From NCBI RefSeq assembly GCF_013122565.1, contig NZ_CP053258.1: a DNA stretch of 64,000 bases, one strand, 5' to 3'. Each line of letters opens with the position of its first letter. Positions within the stretch are counted from its first letter, which is position 1. The notes under the pieces are model-generated. The model was not told where the DNA came from. It saw only the letters and a program-made list of their open reading frames with translations, and did not search any database. The DNA comes from Escherichia coli (lineage in GTDB: Bacteria; Pseudomonadota; Gammaproteobacteria; Enterobacterales; Enterobacteriaceae). A program made the position numbers and the translations under genes. Positions 40,954-45,589 of this stretch are shown piece by piece.

Positions 40954-41072
40954 TTCCTGCCACGTAAGCCCCTCATCGGGCACTAAAACAGCAATACAAA
41001 AATATAACCCTCTGTAAATTACAGGGCATGGTGAGCGGCTTCGCTATGCCCAAAATCTGGAGAAAGCTCGCT

Positions 41073-42365
41073 ATGGATATTCCCGTTAATGCAGCAAAGC
41101 CGGGGCGTCGGCGTTATCTGACGCTGGTGATGATCTTTATTACGGTGGTCATTTGTTATGTTGACCGCGCTAACCTGGCCGTGGCTTCCGCCCATATTCA
41201 GGAAGAGTTCGGTATTACGAAAGCGGAAATGGGCTATGTATTTTCGGCCTTCGCCTGGCTTTATACGCTATGTCAGATCCCCGGCGGTTGGTTTTTAGAT
41301 CGCGTAGGTTCACGCGTGACTTATTTTATTGCGATATTTGGCTGGTCAGTGGCGACTTTATTCCAGGGCTTTGCCACGGGATTAATGTCATTAATTGGTC
41401 TGCGCGCGATAACCGGTATTTTCGAAGCGCCCGCTTTCCCGACCAATAACCGGATGGTGACCAGCTGGTTCCCGGAACATGAACGCGCTTCCGCCGTTGG
41501 TTTTTATACGTCTGGTCAGTTTGTCGGTCTGGCGTTTTTGACTCCGCTGCTGATCTGGATTCAGGAAATGTTGAGCTGGCACTGGGTGTTCATTGTCACC
41601 GGTGGTATCGGCATTATCTGGTCGCTGATTTGGTTTAAGGTTTATCAGCCGCCGCGCCTGACCAAAGGCATCAGCAAAGCTGAACTGGATTACATTCGTG
41701 ATGGCGGCGGTCTGGTGGATGGTGATGCGCCGGTGAAAAAAGAGGCACGTCAGCCGTTAACAGCCAAAGACTGGAAACTGGTGTTCCATCGTAAACTGAT
41801 CGGCGTCTATCTTGGGCAATTTGCGGTGGCTTCTACACTGTGGTTTTTCTTAACCTGGTTCCCGAACTATTTAACCCAGGAAAAAGGAATCACGGCGCTG
41901 AAAGCAGGCTTTATGACCACGGTGCCATTCCTCGCGGCGTTTGTCGGCGTCCTGCTCTCTGGCTGGGTCGCGGATCTGCTGGTACGTAAGGGCTTTTCAC
42001 TGGGCTTTGCGCGTAAAACGCCGATTATCTGCGGCTTGCTGATCTCCACCTGCATTATGGGCGCTAACTACACCAATGACCCGATGATGATTATGTGCCT
42101 GATGGCGCTGGCATTCTTCGGCAACGGTTTTGCTTCGATTACCTGGTCGCTGGTCTCTTCTCTGGCACCGATGCGCCTGATTGGTTTAACCGGCGGCGTG
42201 TTTAACTTCGCCGGTGGTCTGGGCGGCATCACCGTTCCGCTGGTGGTGGGGTACCTGGCGCAGGGTTACGGTTTCGCACCTGCACTGGTTTATATCTCCG
42301 CCGTCGCGTTGATTGGCGCGCTCTCTTACATCCTGCTGGTGGGTGATGTGAAGCGCGTTGGATAA
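41073..42365 (+). CDS. dgoT: D-galactonate MFS transporter
   Basis: ORF track 41028..42365; probable start [16 protein letters not shown]. Confidence 0.88.
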
Positions 42366-42533
42366 TCTTTCAACTGTGGAATATGCGCCACACCACTGCG
42401 CATAATCCACTTTCTTAAAGCCGGTGCGGTCAGGCATCGGCTTTTTACTATCTTGCCGAAGAGTTTTAAATGCAGTTTGCTCATTGCCACGTCGAAATGT
42501 TCCATCCTGGTGTTCTGAAAAAGTAATACGACG

Positions 42534-43211
42534 TCAATCAAACGAATCCCCAGCTTCTGCATCATATGCCATTAAAAACAATGCGCTGCATTCTCTCGAA
42601 TCACACCCCCAGGCGATGCTTTCATGCTTTTTGTTGAACCAGACGGCCGTCGCGGCGGCGTTGATGCTGAAATTCCACTTTTTACCGTCGCTTTTAAGTA
42701 CCCCCTCAACCGTGCAGGGTAAAGAGTAGTAACCATCGCCGGGTAAATAGGCGCCCGGATATTTCGCGCTATTTTCGAAGATGAATTTAATGTCTTCTTT
42801 CGTGAGCTGTTGCTGCCACTCTTTGCACTCATTGGCGGGCAATGTAACGTTCTCTGTACTGGCGGGCCTCACGACTTTAAGAATTTCGATTTTTTCCAGC
42901 GGTGCGGTGGCGACAGTTACACTCCATCCTTTTTGGTCCGGGGCCGTCGATTTTGCGCAACTGACCTTGACCGCATCGTTCTCCCCCTTGCTGTTCTTCA
43001 CCCACGTTGAAACGAGAGGAACCGCGCAGCGTGAACTCACGGCATCGTAGGGGACTTCCAGGCCACGGCGTTTAACCGGTGTTTTTTCGGCCTGTTCGTG
43101 GAGAAATCGTTTGGATTCGCTGTTAACGTCGTACCACGCCTGCAATGGATGTGTGCCATGACCCCAGGCAGAACTCACCATAAGCGTAAGCAATAAACAT
43201 TGAGACTTCAT
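42534..43211 (-). CDS. hypothetical secreted protein (signal peptide), unknown family
   Basis: 225-aa [22 protein letters not shown]..., several Cys; sits where I expected cbrA from my recollection of the K-12 gene order. Confidence 0.6.
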
Positions 43212-43321
43212 CTGTCTATTTCCCTATAGATATGTGAATTTTAAGAATACTATCTCATGCTGATATCCGAGAGAAAGTGTGCTGTACTAGCCAACTCCGA
43301 TGGGCTTGTCAGGACCGCGCC

Positions 43322-44536
43322 ATGAAACAGATAACCTTTGCTCCCCGTAATCACCTGCTCACCAATACCAACACCTGGACGCCCGACAGCCAGTGGCTGG
43401 TGTTTGATGTCCGCCCCTCCGGCGCGTCGTTTACCGGCGAAACTATTGAGCGTGTGAATATCCATACCGGTGAGGTCGAGGTTATCTATCGCGCGTCACA
43501 GGGCGCACACGTCGGCGTGGTGACCGTTCATCCGAAGTCAGATAAATATGTCTTTATTCACGGCCCTGAAAATCCTGATGAAACATGGCATTACGATTTC
43601 CATCATCGACGCGGAGTCATTGCTGAAGGCGGCAAGGTGAGCAATCTCGATGCAATGGATATTACCGCGCCGTACACCCCAGGAGCGCTGCGCGGCGGCA
43701 GCCATGTGCATGTCTTTAGCCCGAACGGTGAAAGGGTGAGCTTTACCTATAACGACCATGTAATGCATGAACTCGATCCGGCGCTGGATTTGCGAAACGT
43801 CGGTGTTGCTGCGCCGTTTGGCCCGGTCAACGTACAAAAGCAGCATCCGCGTGAATACAGCGGTAGCCACTGGTGCGTGCTGGTGAGCAAAACCACGCCC
43901 ACGCCGCAGCCGGGCAGCGATGAAATCAATCGTGCTTATGAAGAAGGATGGGTAGGAAATCACGCGCTGGCGTTTATTGGCGACACACTTTCGCCAAAGG
44001 GCGAGAAAGTGCCGGAGCTGTTTATCGTTGAGTTACCGCAAGATGAAGCTGGCTGGAAAGCGGCAGGTGATGCGCCGTTAAGTGGAACGGAAACCACCCT
44101 GCCCGCGCCACCGCGCGGCGTCGTGCAGCGACGTTTAACCTTTACCCACCATCGGGCTTATCCGGGGTTAGTCAACGTCCCGCGCCACTGGGTGCGCTGT
44201 AATCCGCAGGGTACGCAAATCGCGTTTTTAATGCGTGATGATAACGGCATTGTGCAACTGTGGCTTATCTCGCCACAGGGCGGCGAGCCGCACCAGTTAA
44301 CCCATAACAAAACGGATATTCAGTCTGCATTTAACTGGCATCCATCAGGAGAATGGTTGGGCTTTGTGCTGGATAATCGAATTGCTTGTGCCCATGCGCA
44401 AAGCGGCGAGGTTGAGTATTTAACCGAAAACCACGCCAATCCACCTTCTGCGGACGCCGTAGTCTTCTCGCCGGATGGTCAATGGCTGGCGTGGATGGAA
44501 GGCGGCCAGCTGTGGATCACCGAAACTGATCGCTAA
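43322..44536 (+). CDS. yidR: YidR (beta-propeller/TolB-like protein)
   Basis: ORF track 43277..44536 (GTG); probable ATG start MKQITFAPRNHLLTNTNTW; start uncertain. Confidence 0.8.
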   Translation: MKQITFAPRNHLLTNTNTWTPDSQWLVFDVRPSGASFTGETIERVNIHTGEVEVIYRASQGAHVGVVTVHPKSDKYVFIHGPENPDETWHYDFHHRRGVIAEGGKVSNLDAMDITAPYTPGALRGGSHVHVFSPNGERVSFTYNDHVMHELDPALDLRNVGVAAPFGPVNVQKQHPREYSGSHWCVLVSKTTPTPQPGSDEINRAYEEGWVGNHALAFIGDTLSPKGEKVPELFIVELPQDEAGWKAAGDAPLSGTETTLPAPPRGVVQRRLTFTHHRAYPGLVNVPRHWVRCNPQGTQIAFLMRDDNGIVQLWLISPQGGEPHQLTHNKTDIQSAFNWHPSGEWLGFVLDNRIACAHAQSGEVEYLTENHANPPSADAVVFSPDGQWLAWMEGGQLWITETDR

Positions 44537-45073: not shown

Positions 45074-45175
45074 TACATCGTAGCCGATGAGGACGCGCCT
45101 GATGGGTGTTCTGGCTACCTGACCTGTCCATTGTGGAAGGTCTTACATTCTCGCTGATTTCAGGAGCTATTGATT

Positions 45176-45589
45176 ATGCGTAACTTTGATTTATCCCCGC
45201 TTTACCGTTCTGCTATTGGATTTGACCGTTTGTTTAACCACTTAGAAAACAACCAGAGCCAGAGTAATGGCGGCTACCCTCCGTATAACGTTGAACTGGT
45301 AGACGAAAACCATTACCGCATTGCTATCGCTGTGGCTGGTTTTGCTGAGAGCGAACTGGAAATTACCGCCCAGGATAATCTGCTGGTGGTGAAAGGTGCT
45401 CACGCCGACGAACAAAAAGAGCGCACCTATCTGTACCAGGGCATCGCTGAACGCAACTTTGAACGCAAATTCCAGTTAGCTGAGAACATTCATGTTCGTG
45501 GTGCTAACCTGGTGAATGGTTTGCTGTATATCGATCTCGAACGCGTGATTCCGGAAGCGAAAAAACCGCGCCGTATCGAAATCAACTAA
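45176..45589 (+). CDS. ibpA: small heat-shock protein IbpA
   Basis: [29 protein letters not shown]..., 137 aa, alpha-crystallin domain. Confidence 0.95.

Follow-up and report, generated by a model that had tools for sequence, protein, structure and literature searches.

A rare exported two-domain protein between dgoT and yidR of Escherichia coli, a candidate orphan immunity protein against Amidase_2-type effectors

A 225-aa gene at the junction of dgoT and yidR in an Escherichia coli strain, here called X, seems to encode an orphan immunity protein of the periplasm, directed at T6SS effectors of the Amidase_2 type and carrying a second domain. We hold this reading, which is based on the comparison of protein families and gene orders, with moderate confidence. 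Observed were the homology of X to other proteins, its export-type N-terminus, purifying selection on the gene, and a repeated gene order, toxin and then homologue, among its relatives. The window, meaning the whole stretch of DNA analysed, is 64,000 nucleotides of contig NZ_CP053258.1 (RefSeq assembly GCF_013122565.1). The features around X are given below in window coordinates.

41028-42365, plus strand: dgoT, galactonate MFS transporter, the left flank; a 445-aa ORF of E. coli type.
42362-42480, minus strand: cbrA 3' remnant, 119 nt, the last ~39 codons; contiguous with the dgoT match to the cbrA-bearing genome L001.
42483-42506, minus strand: cbrA 5' remnant (ATGGAACATTTCGACGTGGCAATG), the first 8 codons, ~24 nt; 22/24 identical to the cbrA start of L001.
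42507-42533, minus strand: spacer between the X stop and the cbrA stub, compared with L015, L003 and L006.
42534-43211, minus strand: gene X, 225 aa plus stop, two-domain, export-type; ATG start.
42537-42899, minus strand: C-domain of X, aa ~105-225; four invariant Cys and the motif INAAATAVW; homologous to small exported proteins downstream of Amidase_2 toxins.
42900-43160, minus strand: N-domain of X, aa ~18-104; a helix and a beta-sheet, with invariant C62 and C85; distantly FlgA-N-like.
43161-43211, minus strand: signal-peptide-like N-terminus of X, aa 1-17, with small residues at -3 and -1, as read from the sequence.
43212-43308, minus strand: upstream region of X, the foreign part of the divergent X-yidR spacer, with AGGGAAATAGACAG conserved before the ATG.
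43322-44536, plus strand: yidR (DUF3748), the right flank; E. coli-type, ATG at 43322.

The usual occupant of this slot is cbrA. A sequence-only reading of the window had given dgoT-cbrA-yidR as the K-12 gene order and called the locus variable; the order was correct, since cbrA sits there in annotated E. coli genomes, and the variability is supported by a synteny comparison at dgoT-yidR, where the ~5,420 complete E. coli genomes matching the locus carry cbrA and never X. X is absent from all 5,426 complete E. coli genomes searched: the flanks have a match in 5,421 of them, the middle in none. When the slot was searched by blastn at low stringency, the sole match was of 81 nt, in the annotated 3' end of cbrA, in 5,420 genomes. 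The minus-strand ORF of 225 aa that the same reading had described between dgoT and yidR is there, its GC content was rightly called ordinary (0.47-0.55 in the slot, similar to the surroundings), and a protein search with it finds homologues in five clusters, which makes it more than a chance ORF. The flanking dgoT is 98.9% identical to dgoT of L001, annotated as an MFS transporter. On the other side, past yidR, a ROSE_2 RNA thermometer stands 5' of ibpA (45110-45182, plus strand; 100 bits, E 5e-23), an ordinary known feature of the locus.

Other departures from the usual layout were seen on the dgoT side. In some O157:H7 and O145 genomes the match begins at query base 361 and a "hypothetical protein" is annotated in dgoT's stead, while in E. 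coli strain EC96 the match is limited to the first 377 query bases. These cases are further structural variants at the dgoT-cbrA junction.

X opens with an export-type start, in line with the signal peptide claimed for it earlier, and the several Cys noted at that time number seven. By inspection of the sequence, the signal pattern (K/R, a hydrophobic core, then A-W-S or G-H-S) is kept in all five X clusters, and from this Sec-type layout we infer that X is exported to the periplasm. Six of the seven Cys lie in the mature part, and all six are invariant across the family. An alignment of 22 family members, the most distant at 48% identity, has 80 invariant columns, including the six Cys and the motifs WYDVNSE, KRRGLE and INAAATAVW. 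The conserved Cys are even in number in each domain, and such pairs would fit disulfide formation. Six E. coli-type alleles of X show dN/dS of 0.07-0.15 at dS of 0.14-0.25, and by this measure X is a real gene under purifying selection. The conserved AGGGAAATAGACAG before the ATG, shared between genera, is likely the ribosome-binding region; a scan for a consensus sigma-70 promoter or a terminator at X gave nothing above shuffled sequences.

Neither Pfam nor NCBIfam assigns X to a family. Nothing exceeds threshold, the lone NCBIfam match having E 0.04 and 14 bits against a cut-off of 285, and X lacks an FAD-binding oxidoreductase domain (~354 aa), as the observation of no oxidoreductase motifs had indicated. 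With the 22-sequence family alignment the AlphaFold model has a pLDDT of 56 and is too weak for use; an alignment of 126 sequences gives a usable model, with the C-domain above 90. No fold match was found for X that would support or contradict a role as an inhibitor.

X is rare wherever it was looked for. It matches five clusters among 5.8 billion proteins, which are as follows.

E. coli, one cluster, 95-100% identity, including the exact window protein WP_171460111.1 and HBE6261958.1.
Pseudocitrobacter-like Enterobacteriaceae, two clusters, 62-68% identity.
Leminorella grimontii, one cluster, about 50% identity.
Metagenomic, one cluster of one protein.

A scan of species representatives found X in one of 100,044 genomes, that of Leminorella, and a phage search with X found no homologue. 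When X and three domain relatives were searched by tblastn against plasmids, the only matches were one mislabelled Salmonella record (C-domain) and Rhizobium megaplasmids (N-domain). Within Enterobacteriaceae X is always at this junction. Across the X alleles of the window (42534-43338), L002, L013 and L015-L017, 70 sites vary, and they are grouped in blocks: towards either end the window allele agrees with L002, the second E. coli carrier, and in the centre, over ~nt 260-530, with L015. Such a mosaic indicates intragenic recombination among X alleles from a larger, unsampled population of carriers.

The relatives of X divide along its two domains. A profile search run exhaustively over 1.84 billion representatives yielded 296 hits, which fall into two classes, one covering profile positions ~1-110 and the other ~110-226. 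Most relatives in the two classes are stand-alone exported proteins of 115-155 aa, those of the C-domain being ~125-155 aa with a signal peptide or a lipobox. Tandem repeats within one exported protein also occur: the C-domain is doubled in P0027, and the N-domain is doubled in P0126 and in P0138 and tripled in P0040. Pfam and NCBIfam searches with X and 20 relatives, and a PDB sequence search with the family profiles, found nothing above threshold for either class. Below threshold, four of 16 N-domain relatives match PF17656, the FlgA N-terminal domain (structure 3frn), at E values of at least 7.7e-4 and at best 20.2 bits against a cut-off of 27; the gathering threshold is not reached, and X itself has no hit. 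By sequence the N-domain of X resembles FlgA-N only weakly, and it may do so by fold. N-domain relatives in Rhizobium adjoin an MBL hydrolase and a phosphotransferase, and the N-domain is without toxin association.

The C-domain relatives keep different company. About six independent contexts of relatives were examined, and a metagenome scan with a narrower C-domain alignment returned five loci. The closest stand-alone relative, P0024 of Budvicia diplopodorum (profile E 3.7e-31), lies in a T6SS cluster of the order Hcp-VgrG-Amidase_2-P0024-...-TssM, in which the Amidase_2 protein has 242 aa (E 1e-13). A related module is found in E. coli itself, where an amidase and a homologue follow vgrG; at an identity of at least 99% it is present in 80 of the 5,426 complete genomes (1.5%). 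In APEC O2-211 the gene order is tssK, tssL, OmpA-family, hcp, tssH, vgrG, amidase, homologue, hypothetical, tssM, tssA, PAAR, so that the module fills the VgrG cargo slot of a full T6SS cluster. Between E. coli and Budvicia the effectors are 63% identical and the downstream proteins 44%. The C-domain of X is 38% identical to the T6SS-linked downstream protein of E. coli (E 5e-23), and the C-domain HMM matches all the Amidase_2-linked downstream proteins at E 1e-37 to 1e-48. A distant metagenomic relative, P0063, begins 7 nt past the end of a protein of 853 aa that has an Amidase_2 domain at its C-terminal residues 683-835; as far as the arrangement tells, this is how a polymorphic toxin and its immunity gene are laid out.

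An Amidase_2 toxin is thus directly upstream of relatives in three diverged settings, and because those relatives are also exported and Cys-rich, the family carries the signature of periplasmic immunity proteins. Some relatives stand apart from this pattern. The Salmonella C-domain relative is an orphan among Rhs-tip fragments, and its DNA has no match in the E. coli genomes; one stand-alone C-domain relative sits among housekeeping genes.

Two database records met along the way deserve comment. The E. coli homologue in APEC O2-211 (L033 9725-10114, WP_024196213.1) is annotated as 129 aa, with a start inside the hydrophobic core. The RefSeq start is probably too far downstream, and the 149-aa ORF, or its fifth codon, would restore a signal peptide. 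The Salmonella relative comes from a 302-kb record named as a plasmid (pCFSAN022626 of Salmonella Abortusequi, CP075030.1), which holds the chromosomal genes fbaB, yegS and yegQ along with an island of Rhs fragments, and looks like a mislabelled or misassembled piece of chromosome.

We suggest from these comparisons that the C-domain of X represents an undescribed family that would neutralise toxins of the Amidase_2 (N-acetylmuramoyl-L-alanine amidase) type, and that these toxins may reach the periplasm by T6SS or as the C-terminal tips of large polymorphic toxins. X would be exported via Sec, after which its disulfides would form. It could then bind the incoming amidase effector of a competitor, for example an E. 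coli with the VgrG-linked amidase, and cleavage of the cell wall by the bound amidase would be blocked. That the family confers immunity, and that X still binds an amidase, are predictions, as is the choice of amidase. Since 38% identity is low for cross-protection, X may have as its cognate toxin an amidase other than that of the E. coli module. No Amidase_2 gene lies beside X in the window or at any X locus examined, the window neighbours being yidR and the cbrA stub, and X would accordingly be an orphan among immunity genes. All full-length X genes are orphans, and in no case was a toxin seen beside an X-type fusion.

Among known systems, Tae1-4/Tai1-4 and Tae5/Tai5 of Salmonella provide the general framework: immunity proteins with signal sequences neutralise peptidoglycan-cleaving T6SS effectors in the periplasm. 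Tae1-4 cut within the peptide stem and have other enzyme folds, whereas the toxins linked to the relatives of X are of the Amidase_2 (PGRP/T7-lysozyme) type; X and its relatives match no Pfam family, those of immunity proteins included. Kirchberger and colleagues are said to have described, in 2017, orphan T6SS immunity genes in Vibrio cholerae. With such orphans X shares homology to an effector-linked gene through its C-domain, the lack of an adjacent cognate effector, and purifying selection (dN/dS ~0.1). Described orphans usually form arrays inside T6SS or auxiliary clusters, whereas X is a single gene at the core-genome yidR-cbrA junction, fused to a second domain.

The closest parallel is VT1, an experimentally demonstrated ETEC effector of a vgrG-island T6SS that, as a review describes it, cleaves the MurNAc-L-Ala bond and has the immunity protein VTI1 (Ma et al. 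2018, BBA Gen Subj 1862:1635, via PMC6730261). The C-domain relatives are likewise small exported proteins, encoded in an E. coli T6SS directly after an amidase gene with vgrG before it, and the E. coli vgrG-amidase module matches VT1/VTI1 as far as the review's description goes. X, for its part, is 38% identical to the T6SS-linked downstream protein, has an extra N-terminal domain, and stands outside a T6SS locus with no effector beside it. Among the sources searched, Amidase_2 T6SS effectors receive indirect mentions only, VT1/VTI1 being known from the review, and orphan immunity genes are already known in E. coli (PMC6730261).

The resemblance of the N-domain to the FlgA N-terminal domain, weak in sequence and tentative in fold, would hint at a chaperone-like role, and X could on that basis be an envelope assembly factor, or act in the periplasm to regulate or inhibit peptidoglycan amidases of the cell itself. 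The N-domain relatives without toxins and the C-domain relatives that are orphans in housekeeping contexts would suit such a role. A housekeeping function is, however, a poor fit to the extreme rarity and patchiness of X (5 clusters in 5.8 billion, 0 of 5,426 E. coli, 1 of 100,044 species representatives). Conflict genes typically show mosaic, recombinant alleles of high dS, as X does, and the Amidase_2 toxin genes directly upstream of relatives in three diverged settings also argue against it, so we regard this reading as unlikely.

The history of the slot bears on further readings. The rearrangement was mapped by comparing the window with L001. E. coli-type sequence (98.9% to L001, up to its position 3581) extends to window 42480. 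In ordinary E. coli dgoT and cbrA converge with a 4-nt overlap (window 42362-42365), and in the window the cbrA stop TAG has become TAT, the codon change in dgoT, GGC to GGA, being synonymous. About 921 bp are lost from the inside of cbrA, in frame, and 143 nt survive; the remnant reads MEHFDVA and then the C-terminal ~39 residues, and, its stop being lost, the in-frame stub runs 12 codons further. The 5' stub agrees with the cbrA start of the L015 type at 23 of 24 positions and with that of ordinary E. coli (L001) at 22 of 24. Between the cbrA start and yidR lies a foreign segment of ~800 bp (42507-43308) that carries X and has no counterpart in ordinary E. coli, where the spacer is 86 bp; E. 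coli homology restarts at 43309, 13 nt ahead of the yidR start.

Two separate changes were therefore made at the slot, the segment with X and the in-frame internal deletion of cbrA. The earlier description of X as standing where cbrA was expected is right in that cbrA normally occupies the slot; as a simple swap, "in place of cbrA", it does not hold, because the changes are two and both the 5' and 3' remnants of cbrA persist. A mobile-element origin was considered and rejected, there being no significant flanking repeats, transposase, integrase or tRNA-type junction.

Other haplotypes show what the junction looked like with both genes present. In L003, L006-L008 and L015-L017 the order is yidR(-) X(+) cbrA(+), with an intact 353-aa cbrA 62-75 bp downstream of X. 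The E. coli-like contigs L015-L017 have an X that shares 94-96% identity with the window's and a cbrA that shares only 84% with ordinary E. coli cbrA. L002 has the same cbrA deletion junction as the window. In Pseudocitrobacter cyperus (L012 5779-6603), where X is annotated as 157 aa, the full 231-aa ORF has its signal peptide intact, and cbrA is cut down to a short stub (MAHFDVEIIAPGK...) before yidA. This loss of cbrA is independent of the one in the window and L002, and because X is kept where cbrA was lost twice independently, its function does not depend on cbrA. In a metagenomic haplotype (L013/L014 806-1742), X is followed after 21 nt by a 270-aa yidX-like protein with a YidX_N domain, with no cbrA and no dgo operon in between; since X joins the yidX-like gene directly there, this junction is a hotspot of structural change. 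We infer that the haplotype of X, with the order yidR-X-cbrA, is an alternative and older one, shared with other Enterobacteriaceae, and that it came into a rare E. coli lineage, or survived there, through recombination in the conserved flanks. The in-frame deletion would have destroyed cbrA in this lineage when the X haplotype recombined in, or afterwards.

The spacers differ in regulatory sequence. The 86-bp yidR-cbrA spacer of ordinary E. coli contains a perfect CreB cre-tag, TTCACAAGGACTTCAC (L001 4574-4589). In the intact-cbrA haplotypes a degenerate one, TTCAY-N6-TTCAT, comes directly after the X stop, ~45-50 nt before cbrA (L003 3526; L006 6709; L015 807), and since this repeat follows the X stop, cbrA probably keeps its own promoter. 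The spacer at 42507-42533 is without the 33 bp that bear this repeat, as is that of L002, and no cre-tag was found near the locus in the window, including upstream of X.

CbrA saturates the alpha-isoprene unit of undecaprenyl-phosphate (C55-P) carriers and so blocks colicin M cleavage (PMC8469651). Since the deletion destroyed cbrA, CbrA-mediated colicin M resistance should be lost, and the strain has presumably lost it. X shares with CbrA the chromosomal slot and strand, and, if the role proposed for X is right, both shield the cell-wall pathway from a bacteriocin or toxin that acts in the periplasm. CbrA is an FAD enzyme of 354 aa at the cytoplasmic face, whereas X has no FAD motif, is of export type and is unrelated in sequence.

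The immunity reading can be stretched into a two-headed protein, in which the C-domain would neutralise T6SS amidases and the FlgA-N-like domain would anchor X at the cell wall or neutralise a second toxin. The order yidR-X-cbrA would then be an ancestral "cell-wall defence islet" of Enterobacteriaceae, pairing the lipid II colicin M resistance enzyme with an inhibitor of injected amidases, of which lineages would keep one, both or neither according to the competitors they meet. As a whole this is quite unlikely.

X might also be a periplasmic partner of CbrA in the same pathway (modification of C55-P-linked precursors and colicin M resistance), for example by detecting the modified lipid, or dealing with it, at the periplasmic face. 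Its place directly upstream of cbrA, on the same strand and 62-75 bp away in three haplotype groups, invites this idea, and CbrA acts on C55-P (PMC8469651), so both proteins would concern the peptidoglycan pathway. The three adjacencies are, however, one syntenic locus by descent and not independent cases, and the cre-tag-like repeat between the genes suggests a separate cbrA promoter. X stays intact in the two lineages that deleted cbrA, that of Leminorella is not near any cbrA-like gene, and the partners of the stand-alone C-domain relatives are amidase toxins rather than reductases, all of which leaves a partnership with CbrA very unlikely. That X is a relic without function, left by a segment acquired horizontally, with its ORF open by chance, is extremely improbable: the rarity of X, the degraded cbrA next to it and the lack of a consensus promoter or terminator fit, but many substitutions give a dN/dS of ~0.1, every lineage has the ORF at full length, different genera share the ribosome-binding region, and the predicted fold is confident (C-domain pLDDT above 90).

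The reading of X as an orphan anti-amidase immunity protein leaves the general principle unchanged. It delineates an unannotated, putative immunity family of about 300 representatives, without a Pfam model, whose Amidase_2 partners range from Enterobacterales to distant phyla. At this strain's single locus one anti-bacteriocin trait, cbrA, is absent and another is probably present. If X is indeed an orphan immunity gene, then E. coli can carry antidotes to T6SS amidases at core-genome junctions, which effector/immunity surveys do not search, far from the secretion loci.
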